A stretch of DNA of 64,000 nucleotides, from NCBI GenBank assembly GCA_902530685.1, contig CACAAZ010000002.1:2103-66102 (forward strand). Reading direction: 5' to 3'. This stretch comes from an uncultured Alphaproteobacteria bacterium. Its GTDB lineage: Bacteria; Pseudomonadota; Alphaproteobacteria; HIMB59; GCA-002718135. A program made the position numbers and the translations under genes. Positions 24,741 through 41,610 of this stretch are shown here, piece by piece. Every line of letters starts with the position of its first letter. Position 1 is the first letter of the stretch. The notes under the pieces are model-generated. The model saw only the letters and a program-made list of their open reading frames with translations, was not told the origin of the DNA and made no database searches.

Positions 24741-24747
24741 TTTTAAA

Positions 24748-25515
24748 CTACTTGGCTGTCCATCCTCCATCAATAACTAGTGAAGAACCAGTCATCATTG
24801 ATGCAGCATCTGAAGCAAGATACACCACAGCAGTAGCAATATCACTTTCTGTTGCTACTTTTTCTAAAGGTATATTTTCAATTACAGATTTTTTAAAACT
24901 TTTATCTTTAAAAAATTTTTTGACCATTGGGGTTTCTACAAATGTAGGACAAACGGAATTAACTCTAATGTTGTGCTTAGCCAAATCAATAGCCATACCT
25001 TTGGTAAGACCTTCAACACCAAACTTGGTCATATTATAAACACTTCTAAGAGGAGCTCCTACTTTACCTAACTGAGAAGAGATATTTATTATTGATCCAC
25101 CAATGTTTTTTCTATTTTTTGATTTAAGCATAACTTTTGTAGCTAATTGAGCAATATCGAATGATGCTTTAATATTAAGATCAACCACTTCACTCATATC
25201 TTTTCTTTTGATTTTGGTAAAATATTCAGGTCTATTTGTACCAGCATTATTTACTAATATGTCTAATTTTTTGATTTCAGAAAATATTTTTTTTATTTCT
25301 TTTAAATTAGTTATATCACACACATAATAACTACATTTCTTTTTGAGTTTTTTAATTTTGTTTTGAACAATTAAAAGATCTTTCTCTGTACGACTAAGAA
25401 TTATTACATTTGCACCTGCTTCTGCTAACGCTATAGCACATGCTTTACCTATGCCTTTGCCTGACCCTGTCACAAGAGCAGTTTTGTTGTTTACAGTAAA
25501 ATTTTTTAGAAACAT
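24748..25515 (-). CDS. short-chain dehydrogenase/reductase (SDR)
   Basis: TGSGKGIGKACAIALAEAG cofactor motif, NNAG, catalytic YNMTK. Confidence 0.85.
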   Translation of the reverse strand: MFLKNFTVNNKTALVTGSGKGIGKACAIALAEAGANVIILSRTEKDLLIVQNKIKKLKKKCSYYVCDITNLKEIKKIFSEIKKLDILVNNAGTNRPEYFTKIKRKDMSEVVDLNIKASFDIAQLATKVMLKSKNRKNIGGSIINISSQLGKVGAPLRSVYNMTKFGVEGLTKGMAIDLAKHNIRVNSVCPTFVETPMVKKFFKDKSFKKSVIENIPLEKVATESDIATAVVYLASDAASMMTGSSLVIDGGWTAK

Positions 25516-25528
25516 TTAATCTGATTAT

Positions 25529-26188
25529 TTACAATGAAAAAATAGATTGATCTAATAAATTCATTTTTTTAATACACATTTGAAAACCATCTTCTAGGTG
25601 GTAATCACCTGGAAACCCAATGCATTTAATTCCAGCGTTTACGGCAGAATTACTACTTTCTTCAGTATCCTCTATTGCAAGACAATCTTCTGGCTGTAAA
25701 TTTAATTTGTCTAATGTGACTTTGTATATTTCTGGATGTGGTTTTTCATTTTTAACAAATGATTTATTACCAATAAAGTCAAATTCTTCTTTTGAAATTT
25801 GACCGGAAAGACTTTCAAATACTGCATCGACATTATTTAAAGTTGTAGAAGTTGAGAAAGCAAGTTTAATATTATTATCTTTTGTATACTTAATTATTTC
25901 ACCAACGCTCTTCCTTAATTTTTGTTTATTCCGAATAATGTACGAGCTAAAGATTTCTGTTTTTCTATTCCTAATTTGTAAAGCATTTACATTAGTGTTA
26001 TTTTTTTCAGCAAAATCTTCCACTCTTTTTGTCCCACCAGATTTTTTTAACAAAATTTTATAGTCTTGCTCGTCCCAATACCAATCAAGGCCAGCTTCTT
26101 TAAAAGCTTCATTAAATGAGTTACGTTGAATGTTAGAAGATTCAATTAGTGTCCCGATAGACCCAAATAGAAGTGCTTTATATTTCAT
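25529..26188 (-). CDS. HAD-superfamily-like protein with degenerate motif I
   Basis: HAD motifs III/IV present (EKPHPEIY; IEDTEESSNSAVNAG), but motif I reads LLFGSIGTL instead of hhhDxDGTL. Confidence 0.6.
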   Translation of the reverse strand: MKYKALLFGSIGTLIESSNIQRNSFNEAFKEAGLDWYWDEQDYKILLKKSGGTKRVEDFAEKNNTNVNALQIRNRKTEIFSSYIIRNKQKLRKSVGEIIKYTKDNNIKLAFSTSTTLNNVDAVFESLSGQISKEEFDFIGNKSFVKNEKPHPEIYKVTLDKLNLQPEDCLAIEDTEESSNSAVNAGIKCIGFPGDYHLEDGFQMCIKKMNLLDQSIFSL

Positions 26189-26206
26189 AAGATTAGAAAT
26201 TTATTA

Positions 26207-27088
26207 TTAACCTTTTACTGCTCCAGCAGTTAAACCACTTATTAATTGTCTTTGGAAAAACATGATTATCATAAAAAGTGGTGCAGTTGCAGAAACAACA
26301 CTTGAGACTGCCCACATATAATTTCCACTATGTTCAATTGTACCTAAATAAGCATTAATTTTAGGAACCATTGTATAATTCTGCTGATTTAATAGAAGTG
26401 AAGTAACTGTAAAATCATTATAGGCTAACATCATACTAAATAAACCTGCTGTAACAACTCCAGGCCACATAACAGGCATTATAACAAAGCGAAACGCTTG
26501 AAAATACGAACAGCCATCAATTAGTGCACTTTCATCTAACTCTTTAGGAACTGTTTTAAAGAAAGAGTAGAGTAACCATAATGTAAAGGGTTGATTGATT
26601 GCAACTAAAACAATTATGGTAGTTGGAAGTATGCCCCAAACGTTCAATTGGAAGAAAGGAAACAGATAACCAGAAACTAATGTAATGTGTGGCATCGCTC
26701 TAAAAATCAAGGCAGCTATTAAAATCCAAAAAGTATATTTATATGTCGATCTAGACAAGGCATAAGCACCTAATGTTCCTAAAAATAAAGAGATCGTAAC
26801 AACTGAAACTGTAATAATAATTGTATTCATTGTTGCTTTCCAAAATTCACCTTCTGTCCAAGACTCTACATATGCCTTAACTGTAGAGGTATCTCCTGTT
26901 TCTATCAAAGTATTAACTCCTGTGACTGCAAACATCCAATCAGCTCTTGAGAAAAAGTCGGCTTTTACTTTAAATGATCCCCAAAAAGTCCATATAAAAG
27001 GAAACACAGAAATAATTAACCAAGCAAGAATAAAAAAACTATTTAATAAAATTAGTTGTTTTGAGTATCTGTTAATTTTTGATTCCAT
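26207..27088 (-). CDS. carbohydrate-type ABC transporter permease (MalG/UgpE-like)
   Basis: 6-TM protein; EAA loop DESALIDGCSYFQAFRFVIMPVMWPG. Confidence 0.85.
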   Translation of the reverse strand: MESKINRYSKQLILLNSFFILAWLIISVFPFIWTFWGSFKVKADFFSRADWMFAVTGVNTLIETGDTSTVKAYVESWTEGEFWKATMNTIIITVSVVTISLFLGTLGAYALSRSTYKYTFWILIAALIFRAMPHITLVSGYLFPFFQLNVWGILPTTIIVLVAINQPFTLWLLYSFFKTVPKELDESALIDGCSYFQAFRFVIMPVMWPGVVTAGLFSMMLAYNDFTVTSLLLNQQNYTMVPKINAYLGTIEHSGNYMWAVSSVVSATAPLFMIIMFFQRQLISGLTAGAVKG

Positions 27089-27089
27089 A

Positions 27090-28118
27090 TTATCTTTCTG
27101 TCCTAAATTCTCTCCATGTTCTTATAAGTACTGGTGTTAATAGAATTGCTACACCAATAATAGTTAACATAGATGTTGCTCCTGCGGACCCAAATAACAT
27201 TTTGTTTTCACTTCTTAAGTCGTTATAAATCATCCAAGAAAGTGATTGAGCAACTCCTTCAGCAGCGAACCCAATTATTGGCTCAAGAACCCTAAAATTA
27301 TCCATTAGACAAATTAATATAATAAATGTTGCTACCGGATAAAGATGTGGAATAACAATGTGTCTGACTCTTTCATATCTTGAGGCGCCATCTATGATCG
27401 CTGCTTCAATTGGATCTTGAGGAACAGTTTGTAATGCAGCATAAAAAACAACAAATGCAAATGGAGTATTGTGCCAAATACCATAAATAATCAAAGTAAT
27501 CCAAGTCAATTGACTGGAAGACTTTAGTGATAGATTTGGATCATCAAATAAGAATTGAATAAATGAACCTAATATTCCTTTAGCATCTATCATCCAAAAT
27601 AAAACGAGAGATCCAATCAATGGTGTTACAATCATAGGCAGTATAACACCAAAAATGGTTGGGCCTTTTAAGCTTTTTGTAATTGTATTTACACTTAAAG
27701 CAACGATGAAACCTAAAACTACAACTGGTGGTGTAACTGCAAAACAAAATGTGAGTGTAAATAAAAGTGCTTTGTAAAAAGGTAAATTTAGTAAAATATC
27801 TGTAAACTCTGCTATCGATGAGGAATTAGTCCAGGCTTCTTTAATTTCATCAAAAGCCAAATGGTTTCTGTCGCCGTATGTTCCTAAACCATTAAACCTT
27901 CCAAGAGGTTGTTCTTCTTGTAATTTTGTTGTAGCTTCAATATCAACTTTTGTTTCCGTTTTACATCCAAATGGATCACATTTTTCTACTTCCATTAAAA
28001 TTTGTTCAGGCTCGATATGAAGAGACTGAAAAAAACTAGAAATAATTGGAAGACCAATAAATAATAACATTGCCAATCCACTTGGAAAGAAGAACCAAAA
28101 GAATGTTCTGTGGGGCAT
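27090..28118 (-). CDS. carbohydrate-type ABC transporter permease (MalF/UgpA-like)
   Basis: EAA loop EAAIIDGASRYERVRHIVIPHLYP; large first periplasmic loop. Confidence 0.85.
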   Translation of the reverse strand: MPHRTFFWFFFPSGLAMLLFIGLPIISSFFQSLHIEPEQILMEVEKCDPFGCKTETKVDIEATTKLQEEQPLGRFNGLGTYGDRNHLAFDEIKEAWTNSSSIAEFTDILLNLPFYKALLFTLTFCFAVTPPVVVLGFIVALSVNTITKSLKGPTIFGVILPMIVTPLIGSLVLFWMIDAKGILGSFIQFLFDDPNLSLKSSSQLTWITLIIYGIWHNTPFAFVVFYAALQTVPQDPIEAAIIDGASRYERVRHIVIPHLYPVATFIILICLMDNFRVLEPIIGFAAEGVAQSLSWMIYNDLRSENKMLFGSAGATSMLTIIGVAILLTPVLIRTWREFRTER

Positions 28119-28130
28119 CTATTTCTTACT

Positions 28131-28164
28131 AAAAAAAAAGTGGAACATAATAATGTTCCACTTT
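28131..28164 (-). terminator. intra-operon rho-independent terminator/attenuator after the binding-protein gene
   Basis: On the minus strand GTGGAACAT-tatt-ATGTTCCAC (28140..28161), followed by a run of 9 T. Confidence 0.75.
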
Positions 28165-28184
28165 ATCATAAATATTTATACGGT

Positions 28185-29420
28185 TTATAGAAAACCTTGC
28201 TCAGTAGCTTTTGCTACATAAGCAGCTTCTACATCCGCTAATGCTTTTTCAGCAGACTCATTTCCTTGTAGAAATTCAACAAGTTCTGTACTCAAAGCAC
28301 CATGTAATAGACTCATATATGGTAAGCTTGGGTATGGTGTTGCACCTCTGTTAGCAGCGTCAACAACTGGTCCTGCTGTATCTCCTGGTGAATAACCATC
28401 AATCAACCAAATTGTTGCATTTGGATTAGCATTTGCCATTTCTGTTGAAGTTGCTGCACCTAAAAGAGCTCTAAATGATGCTTCTGCATTTGCATCAGAA
28501 GTATTCGTTGCAATTCCAAAACCATCCCACCAAAGAGTTGTTGCTGGTTTACTTCCACCACCTACAGATGGAGAAGGAGCTAATCTAGTATCAGCTTTAA
28601 TTGCTTGATCACCTTCATCATCTAACAATGAAGCTGCACCTGAATTCCAGATATGCATTAATGCTACATTACCAGACTCCCATTCTTCTTTAACTGCATT
28701 TGTATCTTGAGTTAAGAAATCAGGGTTACTTACTTCTGTTAATCTTTTAAGCATATTAAGAGCAGCTACTCCTTTAGCGTTATTTACACTAACTTCAGCT
28801 GTCCCAGCTTTAAAGAAATCACCTCCGTGACCAAGGTACATGTTTACAAACTCTTGACCTAGGTTCCATCCAGATTTGAAAGCACCAGCGTATGGGTTAG
28901 CCATTTTGCCAGATGCTTTAATTTTTTCTGCAGCTGCAATTACTTCTTCGTATGTTGAAGGAACTGCGATACCTAAATCATTAAGAATACTTTCTCTATA
29001 CCAAAGATGTTGAGCATTAGCCATAAAAGCTATTGCATAGATCTTTCCATCAATCACAATTTTTTGGTTGTCTTGTAATGCACTTCCGTATTTAGCAACT
29101 AAATCATCAAGTGGACGAATTAAGTTATCATTCATTAAAGTTGTAATTGAACCATTAGTTACAAGTTTAGCAGAGAATTCAGCTGGGTTAGCTGAAAGTG
29201 CTGCAACTTGTAATTTATTATGATCAACGGAATGTGTTACAGAAAAATCCGCATCAGGTCCTGCACAACTTTTTACTTCATCCATGAAAATTCTGTATGT
29301 TGTAAATTCGTTTGCTAGAATCTTTATTGATCCATCTGTTACTCCACAAGGTGAGTGCCCACCGGCATATGCACTTGTGCTAACAAATGTGAACAATAGA
29401 GCTATTAATAGTTTTTTCAT
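28185..29420 (-). CDS. ABC transporter substrate-binding protein, family 1 (sugar/polyol type)
   Basis: Signal peptide MKKLLIALLFTFVSTSAYA; ~410 aa, family-1-like; heads the permease genes. Confidence 0.8.
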   Translation of the reverse strand: MKKLLIALLFTFVSTSAYAGGHSPCGVTDGSIKILANEFTTYRIFMDEVKSCAGPDADFSVTHSVDHNKLQVAALSANPAEFSAKLVTNGSITTLMNDNLIRPLDDLVAKYGSALQDNQKIVIDGKIYAIAFMANAQHLWYRESILNDLGIAVPSTYEEVIAAAEKIKASGKMANPYAGAFKSGWNLGQEFVNMYLGHGGDFFKAGTAEVSVNNAKGVAALNMLKRLTEVSNPDFLTQDTNAVKEEWESGNVALMHIWNSGAASLLDDEGDQAIKADTRLAPSPSVGGGSKPATTLWWDGFGIATNTSDANAEASFRALLGAATSTEMANANPNATIWLIDGYSPGDTAGPVVDAANRGATPYPSLPYMSLLHGALSTELVEFLQGNESAEKALADVEAAYVAKATEQGFL

Positions 29421-29442
29421 ATATTTCCCCTTATTAATAAAG

Positions 29443-29455
29443 TGTGAAATTCACA
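29443..29455. promoter_or_regulatory. palindrome TGTGAA-A-TTCACA in the 5' leader of the binding-protein gene
   Basis: Perfect 6-bp arms, 23-35 nt upstream of the ATG at 29420. Confidence 0.25.
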
Positions 29456-29511
29456 TTTAAGTATAAATCCTTTATATTGGTATTAGAAAATAATGCAATA
29501 ATATGAATTGA

Positions 29512-29529
29512 TATTCAAGATTTTGAATA
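29512..29529. promoter_or_regulatory. candidate operator TATTCA-N6-TGAATA (copy 1)
   Basis: Perfect palindrome 21 nt upstream of the LacI-family gene; the same motif recurs at 32158, 36341 (N7) and 36361. Confidence 0.5.
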
Positions 29530-29549
29530 TTGAAATGGGGGGATAATTC

Positions 29550-30548
29550 ATGAGTTTTAAAAAGACTGCGACATCACAGGACGTAGCAAAACTAGCAGGA
29601 GTATCCCAATCAGCTGTTTCAAGATGCTTTACTAAAGGTGCCAGCATTTCTAGTAGAACAAAGTTAAGAGTTTTAGAAGCAGCCAAGAAATTAAAGTATA
29701 AGGCGCCCTACACATCATCTAATTTAGCATCTAATGATGATAGTGGATTGGTAGCTGTCATTTTACCCTATGTTACGAGCAGATATTATCCAGAAGTTTT
29801 AATTGAGTTACATGAAGCACTTAGAAATGGAGGCTTTAGAATTTTATTAATTACGACTGATGATGGCGAAGAATTAGATGAAAAATTAATACAGCCATAC
29901 TTAAAAGAAAAACTCATTGCAATAATATCAGCAACAAAACCTACTGATAAATTTGTTGAAGATTGCAATCAAAAAAGAATACAATTTATTGCTTATAATA
30001 GAAGTTGGAATATACCAACGATAAGTTCCGTTGCGTGTGATCATCGTAACGGAGGAGAATTAGTTGCAGAATATTTTACAAAGAAAAATCATAAAAATAT
30101 TGGCATCATTGAAGGGCCAAAAGGATCTTTTGTAAGTGATGAGCGATGCAAAGGTTTTAAAAATTATCTTAAAAATAATAAAAAAATTAAATTAAATATT
30201 GAAAAAGGTTTTTTTACTTACGAAGGTGGATATCAAGCAACAGAAAAAATTTTCAATAAAAAGATAAGTGCAATATTTTGCGCTGATGATACGATGGCTT
30301 TCGGATGCTTAGATTATATTAAAAAAAATACTTCATTAAAAACACCTTCTCAATTAGAAATTATTGGTTATGACGATATATCAATGTCAGCTTGGGAATC
30401 ATATAACCTTACAACTGTCAGACAACCTATTAGACAAATGTCAAAACTAGCAACTCAATTAATAAATGAATATATTAAAGATCCAGATTTTGAGCCTATA
30501 AATCATATTGTACAGGGAAGACTTATAAAAAGAAAAACTACAAAATAA
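29550..30548 (+). CDS. LacI-family transcriptional regulator
   Basis: N-terminal HTH ATSQDVAKLAGVSQSAVSRCF plus periplasmic-binding-protein-like sugar-sensor body. Confidence 0.85.
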   Translation: MSFKKTATSQDVAKLAGVSQSAVSRCFTKGASISSRTKLRVLEAAKKLKYKAPYTSSNLASNDDSGLVAVILPYVTSRYYPEVLIELHEALRNGGFRILLITTDDGEELDEKLIQPYLKEKLIAIISATKPTDKFVEDCNQKRIQFIAYNRSWNIPTISSVACDHRNGGELVAEYFTKKNHKNIGIIEGPKGSFVSDERCKGFKNYLKNNKKIKLNIEKGFFTYEGGYQATEKIFNKKISAIFCADDTMAFGCLDYIKKNTSLKTPSQLEIIGYDDISMSAWESYNLTTVRQPIRQMSKLATQLINEYIKDPDFEPINHIVQGRLIKRKTTK

Positions 30549-30549
30549 T

Positions 30550-30969
30550 TTACTTAAATTTTAATCCCATCTGTTCGAAGACACCATGATTATCTACCAT
30601 AACGTAATTATCTAAAAATTTTCCATCTTTAATGGTCCAAAAATCTGAAAATTGCATTTTGATAGATTTGCCTGTTGGCTCCACTCCAAGATATGTTCCA
30701 CTATGTGTGCCTGTTAAAAATCCTGTTGCACTAATCCACTCACCTTCAGCAACCACAATATCATTTTTTACGTGATAATCTGGAAATGCTTCATAAAAAG
30801 GTTTTAGAACTTTATATTTAAAATTTTCTATACCATGAATATCACCAAAACCTGGAGGACCGTGCCAAACCATATCATCATGCCAGTACTTATGTTGTGC
30901 ATTTAGATCTTGAGCATTAAGTGCATCATACATATCAGCTAATAATTTTTTACTTTCATCTAAAGTCAT
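30550..30969 (-). CDS. SnoaL/NTF2-like (ester-cyclase type) protein, single domain
   Basis: GTHSGTYLGVEPTGKSIKMQFSDFWTIKDGKFLDNYVMVD signature; WHDDMVWHGPPGFG block shared with the second domains of 32213.. and 36417.. Confidence 0.7.
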   Translation of the reverse strand: MTLDESKKLLADMYDALNAQDLNAQHKYWHDDMVWHGPPGFGDIHGIENFKYKVLKPFYEAFPDYHVKNDIVVAEGEWISATGFLTGTHSGTYLGVEPTGKSIKMQFSDFWTIKDGKFLDNYVMVDNHGVFEQMGLKFK

Positions 30970-32105
30970 TTTTTATCTCCTAAAATTTGCATTAGTATTG
31001 CAAGCTCATTAAAACCAGTCCACTCTTTAGTAATTTTATTATTTTTAATTTCCCATTGAGTGATTCCCCACAAATACACTTCTCTATTAGTTGGTTGGCC
31101 ATATGAGCCATTACCTTTATGCGTTCCTACAGCGCCCCAACGAACCGATACTAAGTAACCATCTTTTGTATTGCCCATCCAGTATAGATCTTCAATACTG
31201 AGTGCAAGATCAGGGAACGAAGCTAAAAGTGAAATTATAAATTTTCTTAATTGCAAAACTCCTTTAAATTTACGACCAGTTGAACCTTCAAATTCTACCT
31301 TACTCGAGTATGCTTTATTTATTGCAGAAAAGTTTCGCCTATTCCAAATTGTATCATAAACTGCATGAACAAACTCTCTTACATTTGTAATTTTATCTGG
31401 AATATCAAAACTAATTGGTTTTAATTTAGTAATATTTCTTGTTGGTTTGGAGTTTTTAAAATGAGGGGAATAGGGTCCTGCAATTCCCTCATCGACAAGT
31501 TGCTTGGCAACCTGATTTACATCTAATCCGAGTTGTTTAATTAAACCTGCTGTATCGTAAACAACATTTTCGTAATAAATTTCATTATTTTTGGCTACAC
31601 AATTCGCAATACAAAATAATCTTACTTTTTTACCAGTTGGTTTGGAAAATTTACTAAATCCAGTATTTGTTCCAGTAATAATTGTTCTATGCGAAGTATG
31701 AAAACTTACATTTTCATCTCCTGCCCAAATAACTTCATCTGCAAATAATCGAATATCTGGAAAAGCGTTGTTTGTATGTACAGTATCAGCTACAATTTTT
31801 TCAGATCCAAATTGTAGACCAAATTCATCCCAAACTCTGCAATCTTTACTGTAGGTGTCATAGATGTAGCCAATATTTTTTTCTTCCCAGATTTGATATG
31901 TAATCCTTACAATATAATCGATTATATTTTTATACTGATCTTCAAACCCCTTCATTGATTGATGTTTAAGTTTTTTTGGTTTTGGATTTAATGATTTAGC
32001 TGTTCCTCCACCTCCATATACTTTTAATGAAATATCATAACTCTTAGGCATATGATTATCTTGGAGGGGTTCTGGTCTTTTATCTGTAATTTTATTAAAT
32101 TTCAT
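30966..32105 (-). CDS. tandem SnoaL/NTF2-like two-domain protein (type 1)
   Basis: Two signature copies (GTNTGFSKFSKPTGKKVRLF...NNEIYYENVVYD; GTHKGNGSYGQPTNREVYLW...NNKITKEWTGFN); paralogue of 34350..35342. Confidence 0.65.
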   Translation of the reverse strand: MKFNKITDKRPEPLQDNHMPKSYDISLKVYGGGGTAKSLNPKPKKLKHQSMKGFEDQYKNIIDYIVRITYQIWEEKNIGYIYDTYSKDCRVWDEFGLQFGSEKIVADTVHTNNAFPDIRLFADEVIWAGDENVSFHTSHRTIITGTNTGFSKFSKPTGKKVRLFCIANCVAKNNEIYYENVVYDTAGLIKQLGLDVNQVAKQLVDEGIAGPYSPHFKNSKPTRNITKLKPISFDIPDKITNVREFVHAVYDTIWNRRNFSAINKAYSSKVEFEGSTGRKFKGVLQLRKFIISLLASFPDLALSIEDLYWMGNTKDGYLVSVRWGAVGTHKGNGSYGQPTNREVYLWGITQWEIKNNKITKEWTGFNELAILMQILGDKK

Positions 32106-32157
32106 AATTTGTATTTGTAATGAGATACATTTAAAAATTTTTTAAAGCAATGAAATT

Positions 32158-32175
32158 TTATTCAAAAAAATGAAT
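32158..32175. promoter_or_regulatory. candidate operator TATTCA-N6-TGAATA (copy 2)
   Basis: Perfect palindrome, 53 nt upstream of the ATG at 32105 (-) and 38 nt upstream of the ATG at 32213 (+). Confidence 0.5.
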
Positions 32176-32212
32176 ATTGTCTTTTTTAGTTTATTAATAT
32201 AATCAAAATGAA

Positions 32213-33217
32213 ATGACTGATCTCCAAGCAGAAAAAAAATTAGTATTAGATTATTTAAATGAGTTAGATAGTTGCAACATTGATTCATTATCTGAAGTTA
32301 TATCCAAATACGCATCAGAAGATTTTAGTATGAAATGTACCCACCCATTCAACGAACTAGGTAGTATAGATCTTGTTGCTAATAATCTTTGGAAACCAAT
32401 TAAAGATTCATTTTCACCTATACAACGTCGATTAGATATATTTTATGCTGGGATAAATTCACTAGATAAAAATAAAGGGAAATGGATCTCCAGTATGGGT
32501 CATTTCATGGGTGTTTTCAATAAGCCGTTTGTAGGCCTTAAACCAAATAATAAATCAATTTTATTAAGATTTGCAGAATTTTACAAAGTGGAAAATAACA
32601 AAATTAGTGAAGGGGCTATTTTTTTAGATGTAATGAATTTAATGCAGCAACTAGGTCTTTCTATAATTCCTGAATCTACAGGTCTTGTTTGTGTAACACC
32701 TGGACCAAAGAATCATAAAGGTTTAAAATTTGATATTTCTAGTGAAAGTGAAAGTCAAAAAACATTAGATTTAATTCATAGAATGCGCGATCGACTTGTT
32801 AAAGGATCCAAAATGCAATCTTATAAAGAAGAATTAGAATTAGATTGGCATAATGACATGATTTGGTGGGGACCAGGAGGTATTGGAGCTTCTTATACTA
32901 TTGATGGTTATCAAAAAGGTCACACAAAACCATTTCAAGATGGTTTAGAGTTTGTTCGTTTCAATGGACACATACTTAGTAGCTCTGAAGATGATCTTGG
33001 AGGTTGGTTTGGTTGGCCAAATTTAATTATGAAACCTAAAGGAGAATATTTAGGATTAACAAATGCAAGTGATATTGAATCAGAAATGAGAGTTGTAGAT
33101 TTATATCGAAGAGATGGAGATAAGCTGGCTGAAAACTGGATCTTTATTGATCATTTACATTTTTTAAAAAAACTAGGAGTGGATCTTTTAGAAAGAGCAA
33201 AATTTTTAAATCAGTAA
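32213..33217 (+). CDS. tandem SnoaL/NTF2-like two-domain protein (type 2)
   Basis: Signatures GLKPNNKSILLRFAEFYKVENNKISEGAIFLD and WHNDMIWWGPGGIG...MRVVDLYRRDGDKLAENWIFID; paralogue of 36417..37514. Confidence 0.65.
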   Translation: MTDLQAEKKLVLDYLNELDSCNIDSLSEVISKYASEDFSMKCTHPFNELGSIDLVANNLWKPIKDSFSPIQRRLDIFYAGINSLDKNKGKWISSMGHFMGVFNKPFVGLKPNNKSILLRFAEFYKVENNKISEGAIFLDVMNLMQQLGLSIIPESTGLVCVTPGPKNHKGLKFDISSESESQKTLDLIHRMRDRLVKGSKMQSYKEELELDWHNDMIWWGPGGIGASYTIDGYQKGHTKPFQDGLEFVRFNGHILSSSEDDLGGWFGWPNLIMKPKGEYLGLTNASDIESEMRVVDLYRRDGDKLAENWIFIDHLHFLKKLGVDLLERAKFLNQ

Positions 33218-34345
33218 TTAGATAACTTTTGAGGCAAGTTTAGTACCTTCAACTAATGCATGGAGCTTTTCATAACAAATTTTTTCATCAATTTTTCCAA
33301 AACCAGCAAATGTACTAAAACCACAATCTGTCCCTGCCATTAATTGATCTTTTGGAATGACTGTAGAAAATTGAATTAATCTATCTGCAACAACTTCTGG
33401 ATGTTCAACAAAATTAGAGGTTGAGTCGATTACGCCAGGTACTAGGACTTTATCTTTTGGTAACTTTATATCTTGAAAAACTTTCCATTCATGTGCGTGT
33501 CTAGGATTAGAAGATTCAATGAGAAAGTATTTTATCTTTGATTTTAAAATAATAGGTAATATTTTCTCCAAAGCAATATCGTGTGTGTGGGGTCCTTCAT
33601 AATTACCCCAACATATATGCATTCTAGTTTGTTCAACATTTACATTAGATAATGCTGAGTTTAGGCATTCAATTTGTAGTTCTGCACGTTTAATAAACTC
33701 ATCTTCAGATAAATTTTTAAAATTCATATGTCTTGCTAAAGCAAGGTCTGGGCAATCTAATTGAACTTGGATATCTGATTTTGTTATTAGCTCATATTCT
33801 TTAGCCATAATATTAGATAATTTATCCAAATATTCATCTTCTGTGCTATAAAATTTATTTGGCATAAAAACATTTATGACACCAGGTGATGCTGAGTTCA
33901 TAAATGCATGTCGGTGATTTAGTTTATCAAGTGAATTTTTAAAATTATTTATATCCTGTAGAAGAGAAGTTTCATCTTTTACTTTTAATTCGTTTGTGCA
34001 ACATGGCCTGGTATAAGTTGGTGTGCCACCACTTTTAGCAATCTTTTCTTTATATTCTGGAAAATCGTCAAGATCAGCAGGTGCTCTTCTTTCGCTTTCA
34101 CCTGAGAACCCATCAATTCTATCTTTAATATATGTAGCGTAGCTAATTTTACTCATCTCCCCATCACTGATAAAATCAATTCCAACATCAAGTTGTCTCT
34201 TAACAATACTTTCTACGTTATTTTTTAATACTTCATCAAAACTACTTTTACTAAATTTCTCTCCTTTATCTTTTGCAAATAAAAAATCTGAAAGTTCTTT
34301 TGATCTAGGAAGGCTTCCAACATGTGTTGTCAAAATATTAGACAT
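33218..34345 (-). CDS. cobalamin-independent methionine synthase family II (core-MetE/YxjH-like) protein
   Basis: MSNILTTHVGSLPRS start; Zn-ligand positions HICWG, LIESSN and TDCGFS. Confidence 0.75.
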   Translation of the reverse strand: MSNILTTHVGSLPRSKELSDFLFAKDKGEKFSKSSFDEVLKNNVESIVKRQLDVGIDFISDGEMSKISYATYIKDRIDGFSGESERRAPADLDDFPEYKEKIAKSGGTPTYTRPCCTNELKVKDETSLLQDINNFKNSLDKLNHRHAFMNSASPGVINVFMPNKFYSTEDEYLDKLSNIMAKEYELITKSDIQVQLDCPDLALARHMNFKNLSEDEFIKRAELQIECLNSALSNVNVEQTRMHICWGNYEGPHTHDIALEKILPIILKSKIKYFLIESSNPRHAHEWKVFQDIKLPKDKVLVPGVIDSTSNFVEHPEVVADRLIQFSTVIPKDQLMAGTDCGFSTFAGFGKIDEKICYEKLHALVEGTKLASKVI

Positions 34346-34349
34346 TAAA

Positions 34350-35342
34350 TTAACCTGTTTTTAATAAAATCTGTTTCCAGATCATAGTTTCATCATAGAG
34401 AACCCATTCATTTTTAATACCTCTTTCTCCAAATTCAACATGATTAATACCCATTATATAAATTTTCGAATTAGAGGCTTTCCCAAAAAGACCATCCCCT
34501 TCATGTTTACCTACCAAAGACCATCGAACTGAAGCTTTTTTAGGTTCATATTTTTCTTCAGAAAAAGCAATGTGCTCAACTGAGAACAATGCTTTAGGAA
34601 AAGCATCTCTTAATTGTTTCCAAAATTTTATTACCTCATCTCTACCATGGTGAGTATTTCCCCCTGGTTGAAATTGCTGTATGGCTCTGTCATAATTATC
34701 ATTTATTGTTTTGTCTAAATTAATGTTCATAATAGAAGTTAAGATATTTGCATATAATTCTCCAATGTTACCAGATGCTAATACAGGAGATTTATAAATT
34801 GATTTAACAGGTGTATTTTCATCAAAGGGTTTACTAGCTTTTTCAGGACCGCCTTCATCATTAATTAGATTACTTGCAAATTTCTTAGGGTCAATTCCAA
34901 TTTGTCTCACAATTGCTCCTTGATCTCTCACAAGCCACTCATCATAAACTTGATTATTCATGCATGCACAATCAGCAATAGTTCGGTAATATAGTTTTTT
35001 TCCTGTCGCTTTCCCATACATCCCATCAACAGAATGAGTAGAAGTTGATAAAATGCGATGTGATGAAAAATATCCCTCATCATCATTTCCTGTCCAAATT
35101 ACATCTTCACCTAAAAGTGTTCTGTCTGGAAATAGTTTTTTACTAGCATAGGTACTTTCAATTACTGGGTCTGCACCATAAATTACTCCAGATGGAGATC
35201 TTGTAGGTGTGGGGAGGCTTACATTTGGAGTATCAGCATAATAATCTCTTATTGCTTCAACATCATTGTTTTCCCAAATTTGATATGTGATCTTTAAAAT
35301 ATAATCAGGAAAATCTTTGAATTGTGCATCAAATCCTTTCAT
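34350..35342 (-). CDS. tandem SnoaL/NTF2-like two-domain protein (type 1)
   Basis: KGFDAQFKDFPDYILKITYQIWE start parallels KGFEDQYKNIIDYIVRITYQIWE of 30966..32105; signatures GKATGKKLYYR...NNQVYDEWLVRD and GKHEGDGLFGKASNSKIYIMG...GIKNEWVLYD. Confidence 0.65.
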   Translation of the reverse strand: MKGFDAQFKDFPDYILKITYQIWENNDVEAIRDYYADTPNVSLPTPTRSPSGVIYGADPVIESTYASKKLFPDRTLLGEDVIWTGNDDEGYFSSHRILSTSTHSVDGMYGKATGKKLYYRTIADCACMNNQVYDEWLVRDQGAIVRQIGIDPKKFASNLINDEGGPEKASKPFDENTPVKSIYKSPVLASGNIGELYANILTSIMNINLDKTINDNYDRAIQQFQPGGNTHHGRDEVIKFWKQLRDAFPKALFSVEHIAFSEEKYEPKKASVRWSLVGKHEGDGLFGKASNSKIYIMGINHVEFGERGIKNEWVLYDETMIWKQILLKTG

Positions 35343-35353
35343 TTAATTAATAT

Positions 35354-36325
35354 TTAATTAGTTTGCCGTATTATAAATAAATTACCATCATGATCACTTA
35401 TCTGCCTGATTGAACGTAGTGAATTTTTTGGTACTGAAAAGGTATCTTTTTCTTTAATTACTACTTTATCTCCATCACAATCTATTTCCCATTCGCCAGA
35501 TAAACAATGATACACTTCTGATTTCTCTAGTTTGTATTCATGTATATGAGCACTCTTGCCGTTCAGAAGTGAAAGGCTAAAACCTGTTGAATGCGGTATA
35601 TTTGGAGTAAAAGATTTATCATGAATTTGAAACTGATCAATATAGTTAATAATTTTATTAGATTGATAGTGATCATCATCAACAAAGTATTTATCTTTAT
35701 CATTAAATCGAATAACAAATTTTTCTATGTCTTCTGAAGAGTAATGATCGAAACTCTCTAATTCATTATCTTTTAGTGGTTGAATAATTTTAGTCTCATC
35801 TGTTATTTTTTGTTTCTCCGTGTCAATTAAAGAATTATCATTCATTAATACCATGCCAGATTTTTTTGCATCTTTTAAAAGTTTAGGCGTCCAAGTAATA
35901 ACACCTGGATCATTTTCACCTAACACAACAAACATTAGCGCCTCTTCATCACTTACATTTTGAAAACCTCTGAACATGTTTGTAGGAAAAGAAGCAATAT
36001 CACCTTTTTTTAGGATCACTTCTCCCTCTGTGCCATCAACGCCCCAGTAAAAACGCCAAGCACCTGAATGAATAATAAAAACTTCTGCAGTTGTATGACT
36101 ATGTAAACCAGAACCATTCATTGGAGCAGCGCTTACCGCACCAATATTAAATCCATGTTCTTCAGGTATTTTAACGTTTTGTTTAGCATCTTCACTGACA
36201 CCAGGGCCAATTACTGAATAGTTTTTTCTATCTTGATGGCCTTTTAATTTTCCCTCAACAAATGGAATATTACTAGGAATAAGTTCATCGAATTTTGCTA
36301 ATCTAGATGTAATATTAATTGACAT
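35354..36325 (-). CDS. bicupin protein
   Basis: Two cupin motif-1-like blocks, GSGLHSHTTAEVFIIHSG and SAHIHEYKLEKSEVYHCLSG; beta-rich; 323 aa. Confidence 0.6.
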   Translation of the reverse strand: MSINITSRLAKFDELIPSNIPFVEGKLKGHQDRKNYSVIGPGVSEDAKQNVKIPEEHGFNIGAVSAAPMNGSGLHSHTTAEVFIIHSGAWRFYWGVDGTEGEVILKKGDIASFPTNMFRGFQNVSDEEALMFVVLGENDPGVITWTPKLLKDAKKSGMVLMNDNSLIDTEKQKITDETKIIQPLKDNELESFDHYSSEDIEKFVIRFNDKDKYFVDDDHYQSNKIINYIDQFQIHDKSFTPNIPHSTGFSLSLLNGKSAHIHEYKLEKSEVYHCLSGEWEIDCDGDKVVIKEKDTFSVPKNSLRSIRQISDHDGNLFIIRQTN

Positions 36326-36340
36326 ATTGTTATGATCTTT

Positions 36341-36359
36341 TATTCATTTTTTTTGAATA
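36341..36359. promoter_or_regulatory. candidate operator variant TATTCA-N7-TGAATA (copy 3)
   Basis: Read directly; lies immediately next to copy 4. Confidence 0.4.
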
Positions 36360-36360
36360 T

Positions 36361-36378
36361 TATTCAAAATAATGAATA
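36361..36378. promoter_or_regulatory. candidate operator TATTCA-N6-TGAATA (copy 4)
   Basis: Perfect palindrome between the bicupin gene (ATG 36325, -) and 36417 (+). Confidence 0.5.
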
Positions 36379-36416
36379 AATCAATTATTATTTAACAATA
36401 GTGTTATTAAATTATT

Positions 36417-37514
36417 ATGGCAAATAAAATACAAAACTTTGATACAGGTGAAAAAGGTAACTCAAAAATAATTCATTTAGATCTTGATCCAAAAATAAAT
36501 ATCGAAAACAAAATATATTTTAAAAATTTATTAAATAAAATTGCTGAATGTTCTATTGAAGATTTAGAAGATAATCTTGAAAATTTATATCACGTAGATG
36601 CAGAGCTTAATGGCTTTCATCCAGTTAATGAAATTAAGGGAATTGAAGAAATAAAAAATAAATATTTAATACCTTTAAAGAAAGCATTTCCTGATCTTGA
36701 AAGAAGAAATAATCTTGTTATTGGTGGAGCATTCAGAGATAAAGTTTTTGTTTCATTTGTTAGTCATTTAACTGGAACATTTTCAAATGAATGGTTAGGC
36801 GTTAAACCAACAAACAAAACAATTCATCTTCGAACATGTGAAGCACATCAAATAACTAATAACAAAATAATAAAATCCTACACATTGATTGATACTGTAG
36901 ATTTTATTCGTCAGGCTGGTCATTGGCCCATTAATAATTCTCTTGGTGTAGAGGGTATGTGGCCTTCTCCTATCACAGGTGATGGAGAAAATAATCAAAA
37001 TTTAGATAAGGAATTATCTCTTCAATCTTTAAATCAAGATTTAACTATGCAAAGAAGTTTAAATATTAAACCCGAGACTGAACCAGGTCTTACAAAAGAT
37101 CAAATAAGAGAAAAATTAATTAATCATCCTCAACAAGATTATTGGCATCCAAAAATGATGTGGTATGGACCAAGTGGTATAGGCACAGCTAGAGGTTTAG
37201 ATGGTTTTGTTGATCATCACCAACTCCCATTTAGACTTACATTTAAGGACAGAGATTATTGGAAAATCGGTCATTATATTGAAATTGGAGATGGAAATTA
37301 TTCTATGACTGGGGGTTGGCATAGTATCCAATGTGTCCATGGATCTAGTGATTGGCTAGGGTATGAACCAACTCATAAAAAAATAACAATGAGAGTAATG
37401 GATTTTTATTTACATCATGAAGGACTTATTAGGGAAAATTGGGTACCAATTGATATAGCACACATACTTGATCAAATAGGTATTGATATCTTTAAATTAA
37501 TTCATAAAAAATAA
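36417..37514 (+). CDS. tandem SnoaL/NTF2-like two-domain protein (type 2)
   Basis: Signatures [32 protein letters not shown] and [14 protein letters not shown]...[22 protein letters not shown]. Confidence 0.65.
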
Positions 37515-37516
37515 TT

Positions 37517-38839
37517 ATGGCAATAGAATATTTAAAAAAAGGATTAGATGAAAAACAAAGAATTGAAGATAATGATAAAGTAAAAAAAATTGTTGAGGAA
37601 ACATTAAGTAAAATTGAGTCAGAAGGCGATAAACATATTAGAGAGTTATCTCAAAAATTTGATAACTATTCTCCAGATAGTTTTCGATTAAGTGAAGATC
37701 AAATTAATCAATTAATGAGTGAAGTCTCTGATGATGACAAAGAAGATATAAAATTTGCTCAAAAACAAGTGCGATCATTTGCTGAAGCACAACTCAAAAC
37801 TTTAAGTGAATTAGAAGTAGAAACGCATCCAGGTGTGATTCTTGGTCATAAAAATATACCAGTACAAGCAGTTGGATGTTATGTCCCTGCAGGAAAATTC
37901 CCAATGGTAGCTTCTGCCCATATGTCAGTTGTTACTGCCTCTGTTGCTGGTGTACCAAGAATAGTAGCCACTACTCCACCTTTTAAAGGTAAACCAAATC
38001 CAGCAGTTGTTACAGCAATGAAAATGGGAGGTGCTCACGAAATTTATGTCTTAGGAGGAATGCAAGGAGTTGGTGCGATGGCTATTGGTACAGAAACAAT
38101 TAAACCTGTAGATATGCTTGTTGGACCCGGCAATGCATTTGTTGCTGAAGCAAAAAGACAATTGTATGGCAAAGTTGGTATCGATTTATTTGCTGGTCCA
38201 ACTGAAACAATGGTTATTGCAGATGAAACTGTTGATGGTGAAATATGTGCAACAGACTTATTAGGACAAGCAGAACATGGATATAATTCTCCTGCAGTAA
38301 TGATAACAAACTCAAGAAAACTTGCAGAAGAAACATTTAAAGAAATTGATAGAATTTTACAAATTTTACCTACTAAAGAAACAGCAAGTACTAGCTGGAG
38401 AGATTATGGAGAAATGATTTTATGTGATACTTATGAGGAGATGTTGTCTAAAGCAAATGATATAGCCTCAGAGCACGTTCAAGTTATGACAAAAAAAGAT
38501 GATTGGTTTTTAGAAAATATGACATCTTATGGAGCTCTATTTTTGGGTGCTAGAACTAATGTTGCTAATGGTGATAAAGTCATAGGTACTAACCATACTC
38601 TTCCTACTAAAAAAGCTGGAAGATATACTGGTGGTTTGTGGGTCGGTAAGTTCATTAAAACCCACACTTATCAAAAGATTACAACCGATGAAGCAGCTAC
38701 ACTTATTGGAGAATATGGATCAAGACTTTCACACCTTGAGGGATTTATTGGTCACGCTGAACAATGTAATGTTAGAGTGAGAAGATATGGTGGACTTAAT
38801 ATTGAGTATGGGAAACCAGCATCAAAAATAAAAAATTAA
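37517..38839 (+). CDS. histidinol-dehydrogenase-family NAD-dependent dehydrogenase (HisD paralogue; HpsN-like candidate)
   Basis: HisD hallmark blocks [32 protein letters not shown] and EGFIGHAE; located outside any his-operon context. Confidence 0.8.
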
Positions 38840-40710: not shown

Positions 40711-41609
40711 TAAAAATAACCTTCTTGTTTTTTTTTCTCCATAGATCCAATTTGATCATTATCAATTAATCTTCCTTGTCTTTCTGAATATTTTGACTCT
40801 AGTAATTCAATAATGATTTCTTCAACATTAGTTGCATCAGACTCCACAGCGGCAGTTAATGGATAACAGCCCAATGTTCTAAATCTTACTTTTTTTTGTT
40901 CTATTTTTTCATTTTCCCTAATTTTTAAACGATCATCATCAACCATAATCATCATATCATTTCGTCTAATAACTGATCTTATTTTGGAAAAATATAACGG
41001 GACAAGTGGAATATTTTCCTGATAAATGTATTGCCAAATATCTATTTCAGTCCAATTAGATAATGGAAAAACTCTAACACTTTCATCTTTATCTATATTA
41101 GTATTGAACAAATTCCAAAGCTCTGGTTTTTGATTTTTTGGATCCCAACGATGTTTTTTGTCTCTGAATGAAAAAATTCTTTCTTTTGCTCGTGATTTTT
41201 CTTCGTCCCTTCTCGCACCTCCAAATGCAGCATCAAATTTATATTTATCTAATGCTTGAATTAATGACTGTGTTTTCATTATATCTGTATGAATTTTTGA
41301 GCCACTAGAAATAGGATTTATATTATTTCGCACCCCTTCTTTGTTAATATGAACCAATAAGTCTAAATTATACTTCTTAACAGTCACATCTCTAAAGTTT
41401 ATCATTTCTTTAAATTTCCAAGTTGTGTCTATGTGCATTAATTTAAATGGAATTTTATTTGGATAAAAAGCTTTTTGAGCTAAATGGAGCATTACTGATG
41501 AATCTTTTCCAATCGAATAAAGCATTACAGGATTTTCAAATTCAGCTACTACTTCTCTGATTATATGAATGCTTTCAGATTCTAGTTTTTCAATATGTGA
41601 TAATTTCAT
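40710..41609 (-). CDS. cysD: sulfate adenylyltransferase subunit 2
   Basis: [35 protein letters not shown] and [10 protein letters not shown]. Start placed at MKLSH (ATG 41607..41609); the longer ORF reaches 41636. Confidence 0.9.
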
Positions 41610-41610
41610 G

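Follow-up and report, generated by a model that had tools for sequence, protein, structure and literature searches.

Nine SnoaL/NTF2 domains, a bicupin, a core-MetE-like protein and an HpsN-related dehydrogenase in a probable LacI-controlled catabolic regulon of SAR11-type bacteria

What use does a marine bacterium have for nine SnoaL/NTF2-like domains, spread over five genes and placed beside a bicupin, a core-MetE-like protein and a dehydrogenase of the HisD family? We addressed this question in a stretch of 64,000 nucleotides (hereafter the window) of contig CACAAZ010000002.1 from an uncultured alphaproteobacterium (assembly GCA_902530685.1), which has a G+C content of about 30% and whose closest relatives, in a search of species-representative genomes, were SAR11-type single-cell genomes. 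An earlier note on positions 30550-38839 had read the genes as a dedicated small-molecule pathway with no characterized counterpart. The notion of a dedicated, co-regulated small-molecule pathway was upheld by our analysis, while the local duplication that the note assumed, the limits of the locus and the class of the dehydrogenase had to be amended. Positions 24748-38839 probably constitute one regulon under LacI repression that serves to break down an imported polar metabolite, sugar- or cyclitol-like in nature. The importer, two to five NTF2/SnoaL proteins, the metal cupin, the core-MetE-like protein and the HpsN-like dehydrogenase were found to travel together, with a common operator-like motif, and full-text literature searches yielded no account of such a cluster. 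What is new is an enzyme set for which no characterized counterpart was found; its parts belong to known superfamilies, and its architecture is that of an ordinary LacI/ATP-binding cassette (ABC) catabolic operon. Three members fall outside their nearest named families, namely the dehydrogenase (HpsN, HisD), the MetE-like protein (the MetE/Mes equivalogs) and the NTF2 proteins (the SnoaL cyclases).

All eight open reading frames of 30550-38839 were present at the coordinates and on the strands reported before, and their tight packing was evident from the coordinates, with a 4-nt overlap at 30966-30969, convergent stop codons abutting at 33217/33218 and a 2-nt gap before 37517. The whole unit is wider, however, and takes in on the left a LacI-family repressor, a CUT1-type ABC importer, a haloacid dehalogenase-type (HAD) hydrolase and a short-chain dehydrogenase/reductase (SDR) (Table 1). 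The elements of a LacI-regulated CUT1 uptake operon were all found, namely an SBP_bac_1 binding protein, two BPD_transp_1 permeases, a LacI helix-turn-helix and a palindromic operator-like motif. The window holds no gene for the importer ATPase; such a gene is found in one SAR11 locus (L081) and in the non-SAR11 clusters. The operator-like motif, TATTCA-N6-9-TGAATA, occurred five times in the window against 0.15 expected, and four of the five copies fell between genes of the locus, in the three spacers that separate the binding protein from LacI, T1b from T2b and the bicupin from T2a (gene names as in Table 1), each overlapping a promoter-like site. The central block, TGAATA-N-TATTCA, and its flanks were kept in the T2a/bicupin spacer of LacI-bearing relatives with proteins 57-70% identical, and we read this block as a putative LacI operator. 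Its occurrence in all three intergenic regions suggested that both divergently transcribed units and the importer form one regulon and, together with the synteny of related loci described below, argued for one dedicated, co-regulated pathway.

The fifth copy of the motif (5459-5479, + strand) lies inside the msrA coding sequence (5341-5802) and is probably there by chance. An earlier guess at the operator, TGAATN3-4ATTCA, was not significant (2 matches, 1.03 expected), and a general promoter and terminator scan gave overall no enrichment over shuffled sequences. An Rfam scan of positions 24000-40000 revealed no riboswitch, those for S-adenosylmethionine (SAM) or methionine included; a hit to L20_leader (34.8 bits, cut-off 58.7) was explained by the hairpin that follows the binding-protein gene, and a hit to snoZ105 was a chance match. 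This hairpin is probably an intra-operon attenuator that sets the binding protein in excess of the permeases.

Table 1. Genes and sequence elements of the regulon, followed by two sulfonate-related loci elsewhere in the window
Feature	Position	Strand	Evidence and remarks
SDR oxidoreductase	24748..25515	-	final gene of importer operon; nearest NCBIfam families glucose-1-dehydrogenase, KduD and 3-hydroxybutyrate dehydrogenase
HAD-IA hydrolase, beta-phosphoglucomutase family	25529..26188	-	TIGR02009 77 bits, under its cut-off
Two ABC permeases of a CUT1 sugar-type importer	26207..27088 and 27090..28118	-	translations; BPD_transp_1 in orthologues
Terminator-like hairpin, 12-bp stem and T run	28137..28164	-	directly 3' of binding-protein gene, before permease genes
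Periplasmic solute-binding protein, SBP_bac_1	28185..29420	-	Pfam 69.5 bits
Operator-like inverted repeats TGAATTGATATTCA and TATTCAAGATTTTGAATA	29504..29529		between binding-protein and LacI genes; overlap promoter-like sites on both strands
LacI-family repressor	29550..30548	+	Pfam LacI and Peripla_BP_1/3/4
Sno1x, single-domain SnoaL protein	30550..30969	-	PF07366 88 bits
T1b, tandem SnoaL protein, type 1 paralogue	30966..32105	-	Pfam, paralogy; N-terminal extension of about 50 aa
Operator-like motif TATTCAAAAAAATGAATA	32159..32176		T1b/T2b divergent promoter region; overlaps promoter-like site
T2b, tandem SnoaL protein, type 2 paralogue	32213..33217	+	Pfam, paralogy
Core-MetE-like Zn protein, folate domain absent	33218..34345	-	PF01717
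T1a, tandem SnoaL protein, core member	34350..35342	-	Pfam, paralogy, AlphaFold2/Foldseek
Bicupin	35354..36325	-	Cupin_2 twice; AlphaFold2/Foldseek
Operator-like block TATTCATTTTTTTTGAATATTATTCAAAATAATGAATA	36341..36378		bicupin/T2a divergent promoter region; overlaps promoter-like sites
T2a, tandem SnoaL protein, core member	36417..37514	+	Pfam, paralogy
Class A dehydrogenase (G-K-F-P-M loop), HisD/HpsN family; predicted Zn, NAD four-electron alcohol-to-acid type	37517..38839	+
ComE/ComD, sulfopyruvate decarboxylase beta/alpha	8302-9368	-	ComE 218.6 bits, just under cut-off 221.5; ComD 165 bits, cut-off 148
Xsc	43341-45110

The unit was widely conserved in SAR11-type genomes. T1a had 7204 relatives in the metagenome protein index and 557 confirmed matching stretches in species-representative genomes; an exact-sequence lookup of T1a in the assembly index gave no match. 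Synteny was analyzed in 84 SAR11-type loci. Each of the 84 showed the core, T2a on the minus strand diverging from the bicupin, T1a and MetE-like genes on the plus strand, as far as its contig goes; T1a was present in all 84 and T2a in every locus whose sequence extends to its position. The binding-protein and permease genes follow the core, either directly or after the T2b/T1b/Sno1x trio and/or the LacI gene, in the sufficiently long loci, the exception being L002. The trio itself (30550-33217) is an accessory block that is missing from many SAR11 lineages, and other lineages have a third T2 paralogue together with a binding-protein variant of 40-49% identity. The HAD gene is syntenic in most SAR11 loci, and the SDR gene shares the locus with the cluster in most of them. 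An RraA-like gene stands between the T1a and MetE-like genes in 13 SAR11 loci and an alpha/beta-hydrolase gene after the MetE-like gene in 6, in the same relative positions as in the clusters outside SAR11. In L081, a Pelagibacter isolate genome, the ABC ATPase gene follows T2a on the same strand; an epoxide hydrolase gene (EHN plus alpha/beta fold; 3259-4440 of this locus, - strand) was seen there immediately upstream of the cluster, next to Pta and HpsN. The binding protein is 96-100% identical among most of the closest single-cell genomes and has only remote solved relatives in the PDB (1eu8, 46 bits; SmoF, 32 bits; the SAR11 glucose-binding protein 8hqq, 25 bits). In the available part of a survey of SAR11 binding proteins, the protein of the window does not appear, and the sole sugar-binding protein reported there, SAR11_0769 (glucose), is unrelated to it at 25 bits (PMC11485210).

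The count of nine SnoaL/NTF2 domains in five genes was borne out, and the signature peptides quoted for them were found in the translations. PF07366 was the best family for Sno1x and for each of the eight halves of the tandem proteins. Seven of the nine domains (Sno1x and six halves) exceeded its gathering score of 28.4; the C-terminal half of T2b (17.9 bits, E 0.0028) and the N-terminal half of T1a (21.3 bits, E 2.6e-4) fell below it and were accepted as SnoaL domains because of their full-length paralogy with proteins that score above the threshold. The two proposed paralogue pairs were also recovered, T1b with T1a (31% identity, E 1e-54) and T2b with T2a (27% identity, E 2e-38). The view of the locus as a locally duplicated divergon did not hold: the two T1 types and the two T2 types are old paralogues. 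Octadecabacter holds T1a, T1b, T2a, T2b and a single-domain NTF2 protein (43-50% identity to the window paralogues for the T1 types and 31-44% for the T2 types), and the presence of all five types there suggested that the "duplicated" set is ancestral. A recent local duplication was ruled out by the 27-31% identity between paralogues and by the occurrence of both types in Roseobacters. The N-terminal extension of T1b is conserved in orthologues and hence real; T1b is 43% identical to its Octadecabacter orthologue, and T2b 41-44% to those of Roseobacters and Mesorhizobium. Sno1x is similar to the C-terminal T2 domain (WH..M.WxGP.G.G motif), and single-domain NTF2 genes also occur in the Marinovum, Mesorhizobium and Ruegeria clusters.

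The fold was checked on T1a, the one of the five SnoaL proteins that was modeled. The AlphaFold2 model (predicted local distance difference test 92, predicted TM-score 0.90) consists of two alpha+beta cones and matched, in Foldseek, SnoaL-like cyclases, IdmH, AclR, SnoaL2 and limonene epoxide hydrolase at target-normalized TM-scores of 0.75-0.8, as well as the tandem NTF2 proteins Lsd19 and MonBI-BII. These matches, like those of the bicupin, confirmed the folds and indicated no specific function, and PDB sequence searches with T1a, a T1 profile, the bicupin, the MetE-like protein and the binding protein returned only remote, uninformative matches. The likeness to SnoaL/AknH, SnoaL2/AclR, limonene epoxide hydrolase, Lsd19 and MonBI-BII lies in the alpha+beta cone and the Pfam family and, for Lsd19, in the two-domain fusion that T1 and T2 proteins share; identity is only 9-21%, the polyketide context is lacking, and the cluster proteins belong to a LacI/ABC catabolic operon of primary metabolism. 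Glu135 and Glu312 of T1a presumably line up with SnoaL Asp121, as judged from a hand alignment, and in the same alignment we take T2 proteins and Sno1x to have Asn or Ser at this position. The rest of the site of a strict SnoaL polyketide cyclase (Asp121, His107, His119, Gln105, in a polyketide context) is not kept.

The dehydrogenase was assigned to the HisD family correctly (Histidinol_dh Pfam, 445 bits). Its closest solved relative is HpsN (403 bits to 8V35, 357 to 8WWE, at most 258 to histidinol dehydrogenases), and the alignment with the best match runs end to end. It also scored 431 bits against TIGR00069 (HisD; cut-off 243.8), a model that evidently takes in HpsN-clade proteins as well. 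The HpsN family is defined by a G-R-Y-A/S-H loop, in which His126 binds the sulfonate, where HisD has G-S-A-P-L (PMC11382572). The window enzyme reads G-K-F-P-M at this place, with Met instead of the sulfonate-binding His126, and so lacks the motif that defines HpsN. It has no G-S-A-P-L either, although the Pro and hydrophobic residue of that loop match the window loop at the same positions; a Lys follows the catalytic Asp as in HpsN, and the gene shares an operon with a SnoaL gene within a catabolic cluster. The Gln/His/Asp/His zinc ligands, Glu318, His319, Asp352 and Lys353 of HpsN are kept, and the Zn- and NAD-dependent four-electron oxidation of an alcohol to an acid, the chemistry of HpsN, may be attributed to the window enzyme as well.

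Among the SAR11 loci, the G-K-F-P-M loop of the window, here called class A, occurs in 53, the canonical HpsN loop G-R-Y-A-H in 19 of Pelagibacter Ia, as a separate gene beside Pta, Ldh_2 and rhodanese genes, and G-R-Y-N-N or G-R-N-P-Y in 6. In the last group (L002, L003, L013, L022, L056 and L058), the HpsN-clade enzyme occupies the class A slot next to T2a and is, where measured (L002, L003, L013 and L022), 70-72% identical to the HpsN of Ia; on its sequence, this replacement gives the impression of a change in specificity at one fixed position of the genome. The class A enzyme is 73-76% identical to cluster "hisD" genes of Octadecabacter, Ruegeria and Mesorhizobium and only 47-50% identical to SAR11 HpsN-clade enzymes, canonical Ia HpsN included. 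The absence of the HpsN loop and the 73-76% identity across orders suggested that class A is a separate, cluster-linked class. The enzyme thus belongs to the HpsN clade by overall similarity, yet not to HpsN by its defining motif.

Class A enzymes were also found, at 60-80% identity, on at least 120 plasmids of PLSDB, often without NTF2 genes. On the plasmids examined, the gene stands beside a LacI-type regulator and usually an SDR gene as well, and on some it belongs to a compact module with a TRAP or TAXI transporter and an HpcH aldolase, one example combining LacI, a TAXI-TRAP transporter, an HpcH aldolase, the HisD-like enzyme and an SDR. Carriers of the class A gene include Sulfitobacter pontiacus (L096), Rhizobium johnstonii pRL8 (L095) and Roseibium (L098). 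The pRL8 transcriptomics paper makes no mention of the R. johnstonii hisD-like gene. In every annotated non-SAR11 record examined, the class A enzyme is named histidinol dehydrogenase or hisD, very likely a systematic misannotation. As the sulfonate-binding His126 is replaced, the substrate is probably not 2,3-dihydroxypropane-1-sulfonate (DHPS), and the retention of Lys353 with the loss of His suggested an anionic, non-sulfonate substrate. From these residues we propose a carboxylate isostere of DHPS as the candidate.

The MetE-like protein and the bicupin also proved to be what the earlier note had taken them for. The MetE-like protein has 375 amino acids, lacks the N-terminal domain and matched Meth_synt_2 (PF01717) at 49.9 bits (cut-off 21); it falls below every NCBIfam methionine synthase equivalog, the best being PRK04326 (103.7 bits, cut-off 406). 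The zinc ligands H243-x-C245, E277 and C341 are invariant in 11 orthologues, and HVGSLPRS, DGE, QLDCPD and a vicinal Cys pair, RPCC, are invariant too. In the alignment to 1ypx, MHICWGN falls on mhicrgn, and TDCGF is matched too. Of the equivalents of the homocysteine site, HVGS and DGE (Ser433, Glu484) align with 1ypx, and Asp599 (QLDCPD against IDEP) was placed by eye; with this placement, the zinc and homocysteine motifs agree with the published residue criteria (PMC7857596). The protein is 49-52% identical to those of Roseobacter clusters and is predicted from these motifs to be a homocysteine S-alkyl(methyl)transferase that would pass a methyl group of the substrate to homocysteine. It shares with core-MetE, MesA-D (PMC7857596) and betaine-homocysteine methyltransferases the catalytic MetE barrel without a folate domain, the zinc ligands and the homocysteine Ser and Glu, probably also the Asp. 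It differs from core-MetE and MesA-D in its place in a catabolic operon, its scores far under the equivalog cut-offs, its RPCC pair and its QLDCPD for IDEP. SAR11 bacteria are not known to use cobalamin. A second, more canonical core-MetE-like gene was noted at 19285-20385 (+ strand; 216 bits to PRK04326, below cut-off), overlapping by 44 nt a PehA/choline-sulfatase-like sulfatase gene (17802-19328, +); this pairing hints that SAR11 core-MetE proteins are used in the catabolism of methylated compounds. The bicupin contains Cupin_2 twice, and its model has a bicupin fold. The metal motif of the N-terminal cupin, H75-x-H77-x3-E81 (motif 1), is invariant across phyla; comparison of orthologues showed the C-terminal cupin to be degenerate and dispensable.

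The cluster is not limited to Pelagibacterales and spans at least four phyla. In tblastn searches of plasmids, T1a matched at 44-50% identity in Roseobacters, Rhizobiales and Vibrio pelagius and the bicupin at 31-34% in Roseobacters, Rhizobiales and Pantoea, with relatives at about 30% in Deinococcus, Novosphingobium and Priestia. Gene clusters built from the same families were found in Octadecabacter, Ruegeria, Marinovum, Mesorhizobium, Vibrio, Priestia, Deinococcus, Pantoea and Roseibium; the permeases of the window are 58-63% identical to those of Octadecabacter, Ruegeria and S. medicae and 39-58% to those of Mesorhizobium, Marinovum and Vibrio. The Roseobacter layout comprises the ATPase, binding protein, two permeases, NTF2 genes, the HisD-like gene, another NTF2 gene, usually an SDR, LacI, T1, the cupin, the MetE-like gene, an alpha/beta-hydrolase and RraA. 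The Mesorhizobium, Pantoea, Roseibium, Priestia and Deinococcus versions have the same families with the MetE-like gene absent; all of these but Mesorhizobium add an HpcH/HpaI or RraA aldolase and an amidase or C-N hydrolase. A second HisD-family class (G-R-Y/F-P-I/L) is frequent in the terrestrial versions, absent from Priestia, and present with an amidase in marine Roseibium. The Pantoea and Priestia versions are from leaf isolates and the Deinococcus version is high-Himalayan. Vibrio pelagius has the importer and four tandem NTF2 genes only, beside soxBDAG and purU. The LacI gene is also found in the Roseobacter, Rhizobiales, Pantoea, Priestia and Deinococcus clusters, and the SDR adjoins the HisD-like gene in the Roseobacter, Rhizobiales, Pantoea, Deinococcus and Sulfitobacter versions.

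Where Roseobacters have RraA (PF03737) as the aldolase of the cluster, Priestia and Deinococcus have HpcH_HpaI (PF03328) instead; an HpcH is annotated in Pantoea and is present in Sulfitobacter in a version that holds a lower module only. Such a lower module occurs standalone with TRAP or TAXI carboxylate transporters. That two unrelated pyruvate-aldolase families alternate at one position is strong evidence for a 4-hydroxy-2-oxo-acid intermediate. The extended cluster is alike to lower meta-cleavage and sugar-acid pathways with RraA-type (LigK, the 4-hydroxy-4-methyl-2-oxoglutarate/4-carboxy-4-hydroxy-2-oxoadipate (HMG/CHA) aldolase) or HpcH/HpaI aldolases in having one such aldolase near a hydrolase and a dehydrogenase, and differs from the meta-cleavage pathways in having no LigAB, LigI or LigJ. 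The cluster also repeatedly adjoins methyl or C1 modules, either by functional link or as an island effect: besides the Vibrio soxBDAG and purU (L088), the neighbors are DmdA/DmdB/SBP56, an OpuAC-type ABC transporter with dimethylglycine dehydrogenase and betaine-homocysteine methyltransferase, and a betaine ABC transporter with an aminomethyltransferase, the other loci being L092 (Marinovum), L002 (SAR11) and L091 (Ruegeria conchae).

Taken together, these data led us to propose a pathway in two modules. The upper module would comprise the CUT1 importer and the NTF2 enzymes, to which marine lineages add the MetE-like protein. The cofactor-free NTF2 enzymes would act first on the imported compound, by hydrolysis, isomerization or elimination; we place them first since they are the sole enzymes of the minimal Vibrio version and since paralogue content varies with the binding-protein variant. 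In marine lineages the MetE-like protein would then transfer a methyl group from the substrate onto homocysteine, giving methionine. The N-terminal cupin (HxHx3E plus Arg) may cleave or rearrange the resulting anionic intermediate. The lower module would convert the product to pyruvate and a C4 dicarboxylate by way of the cupin, the alpha/beta-hydrolase, a class II pyruvate aldolase (RraA or HpcH), the SDR and the class A dehydrogenase, for which candidate reactions are 3,4-dihydroxybutanoate to malate or 4-hydroxy-4-hydroxymethyl-2-oxoadipate to 4-carboxy-4-hydroxy-2-oxoadipate; the aldolase would have been lost from the locus of the window in its streamlined genome. By analogy, and not by homology, this scheme recalls myo-inositol (iol) catabolism and the acireductone and quercetin cupin dioxygenases in its carbocyclic-polyol logic of dehydrogenase, ring opening, cupin, aldolase, and importer with repressor; it differs from the iol route in having no Iol enzyme and in that the ring chemistry would fall to NTF2 proteins and a 2-His-1-Glu cupin. 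The L-ascorbate, apiose, pyridoxine, inositol, rhizopine and unsaturated-uronate pathways were also considered and were dropped for mismatched enzyme families.

Several observations weigh against this LacI-controlled catabolic pathway. Its enzymatic steps are all derived from family membership and gene neighborhood. The SDR and the hydrolase fall below all equivalog cut-offs, and the cluster RraA scored only 29 bits against the model for LigK-type CHA aldolases. The window itself contains neither an aldolase nor a hydrolase gene. The His of cupin motif 2 is not there, the sequence reading PTNMFRGFQN with Arg119 at its position in every orthologue; the bicupin gave generic bicupin matches only in Foldseek, and cupins can be isomerases instead of dioxygenases. 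CUT1 binding proteins are usually binders of neutral sugars. No MetE-like gene is present in the Vibrio, Mesorhizobium, Priestia, Deinococcus, Pantoea and Roseibium versions, so that methyl transfer would not be essential to the pathway. Lastly, the window is an organosulfonate island, with ComDE, Xsc, Pta, an aminotransferase, AlaDH and an aldose-1-epimerase-like gene, and Pelagibacter Ia loci have canonical HpsN, Ldh_2, Pta and rhodanese beside the core.

These last two observations speak at the same time for an organosulfonate route. An imported sulfoquinovose, sulfoquinovosyl-glycerol or other C3-sulfonate precursor would pass through a sequence like the sulfo-Entner-Doudoroff pathway, with the SDR, a lactonase, an NTF2 or cupin dehydratase or isomerase, and an aldolase yielding sulfolactaldehyde or DHPS, and HpsN-like oxidation to sulfolactate would feed the ComDE, Xsc and Pta of the same island. 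We consider this unlikely, with a small probability of being right. It draws on HpsN as the closest solved relative of the dehydrogenase, on the greater efficiency of HpsN on sulfolactaldehyde than on DHPS (PMC11382572), and on the weak match of the binding protein to SmoF (32 bits). Sulfoquinovose, made by all phototrophs, would suit the habitats of the cluster, and our literature search found no sulfoquinovose pathway known for SAR11. On the other side, His126 of the G-R-Y-A/S-H loop is replaced in the window and in all cross-order orthologues (G-K-F-P-M). Outside SAR11, no desulfonation or sulfite-handling genes are annotated in the immediate cluster, Octadecabacter alone having TauD and Ldh_2 genes, beyond an insertion sequence element, and many SAR11 lineages hold the cluster away from Xsc and Pta. 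The route leaves no role for the MetE-like protein, four to five NTF2 proteins and the amidases, and the Vibrio version, with importer and NTF2 genes only, would make no sense for sulfoquinovose. The only assayed SAR11 HpsN homologue (HTCC1002) has a Km of 106 mM for DHPS, which also counts against it. An aldose-1-epimerase-like gene and an EamA-type transporter gene were seen next to ComDE (9416-10468 and 10468-11367, both - strand), and the island also holds a sulfatase, CysDNC and CysQ. The genes for CysNC, CysD and CysQ (synthesis of 3'-phosphoadenosine 5'-phosphosulfate and its 3',5'-bisphosphate phosphatase) at 38836-42414 (- strand) abut the cluster and occur here though the host group reportedly has no assimilatory sulfate reduction; otherwise near-identical single-cell genomes (L005-L041) differ in whether they have CysDNC, and some of them have adenosine 5'-phosphosulfate kinase-like and nucleotidyltransferase-like genes instead.

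Returning to the catabolic pathway, we asked which substrate its gene content would suit. The leading candidates are mycosporine-like amino acids, 4-deoxygadusol or gadusol, which with the mycosporines make up the compound class that agrees with the largest number of features; it is a tentative choice based on gene content that we hold to be improbable. The enaminone or imine C-N bonds would be opened by the tandem NTF2 proteins as hydrolases, freeing glycine, serine or threonine. The enol-ether methoxy group, a vinylogous methyl ester, would be attacked by the Zn-thiolate of the MetE-like protein or by an esterase-type hydrolase, and through the MetE-like protein the methyl group would reach homocysteine to give methionine. 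The cyclic reductone left by demethylation would suit a 2-His-1-Glu cupin dioxygenase, and the C5 tertiary carbinol with its CH2OH would suit the HisD-like enzyme and the aldolase. Cleavage of C2=C3 of demethyl-4-deoxygadusol would yield 4-hydroxy-4-hydroxymethyl-2-oxoadipate, from which two routes may be drawn: either HisD-type oxidation to 4-carboxy-4-hydroxy-2-oxoadipate, a classic RraA-aldolase substrate, would lead to pyruvate and oxaloacetate, or aldol cleavage would come first, followed by SDR reduction to 3,4-dihydroxybutanoate and HisD-type oxidation to malate. Glutaminol and serinol are side chains of fungal mycosporines, and the amidase and second HisD class of the leaf, Himalayan and Roseibium versions would fit them. 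The Vibrio cluster, with its importer and four NTF2 genes only, was counted in favor of the idea; according to a review that gives no genes, Vibrio harveyi turns shinorine and porphyra-334 into mycosporine-glycine and 4-deoxygadusol (PMC3083659). It is conceivable, if rather doubtful, that SAR11 and scattered marine, leaf, soil and high-altitude bacteria catabolize algal, cyanobacterial and fungal UV sunscreens by an undescribed pathway. If so, its products would match the known needs of SAR11 for glycine, methionine and pyruvate.

We also considered that the locus might be anabolic, the MetE-like protein serving as a folate-independent methionine synthase analogous to MesD and the SnoaL and cupin proteins making or carrying the methyl donor in the manner of MesX. 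The conserved zinc and homocysteine-binding residues are consistent with this idea, as are the requirement of MesD for oxygen and a partner protein of unknown function (PMC7857596) and the reported dependence of SAR11 on reduced sulfur and methionine (PMC5069961). It is nevertheless very improbable: the MetE-like gene is missing from the six versions named above while NTF2, cupin and HisD-like genes are recorded as persisting, the ABC importer and LacI are integral and typical of catabolism, the locus has no DUF1852 (MesX) gene, and the Rfam scan of 24000-40000 revealed no SAM or methionine riboswitch. Biosynthesis of a secondary metabolite, with the SnoaL proteins as polyketide or ester cyclases as their Pfam and NCBI names ("ester cyclase", Gene Ontology polyketide metabolic process) and their nearest folds (polyketide cyclases and polyether epoxide-opening enzymes) would have it, is hardly credible for streamlined host genomes in which the locus carries an importer, LacI and the aldolase, hydrolase and dehydrogenase partners typical of catabolism, given that polyketide synthase, nonribosomal peptide synthetase and tailoring genes were found in none of more than 90 loci and that, in the hand alignment, we take the SnoaL site not to be kept apart from an acidic residue at Asp121.

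The streamlined genomes of SAR11 keep this unit of 8 to 15 genes in very large numbers. This retention despite streamlining, together with a binding protein that is near-invariant among close relatives, argues that the substrate must be significant in the dissolved organic pool of the surface ocean. Since cultivable Roseobacters and rhizobia carry the cluster, the question of the substrate is directly testable. Once the substrate is identified, the marine carbon cycle would gain a flux term, as might the cycles of nitrogen, sulfur or methyl groups. Automatic annotation would be set right as well, since the class A enzyme goes by the name hisD in the annotated non-SAR11 records examined and could equally be mis-scored as hpsN in homology surveys of DHPS cycling. 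Functions would follow for several large families that lack one, namely the "ester cyclase" COG in primary metabolism, a new HpsN/HisD specificity class found on at least 120 plasmids and an orphan class of core-MetE.

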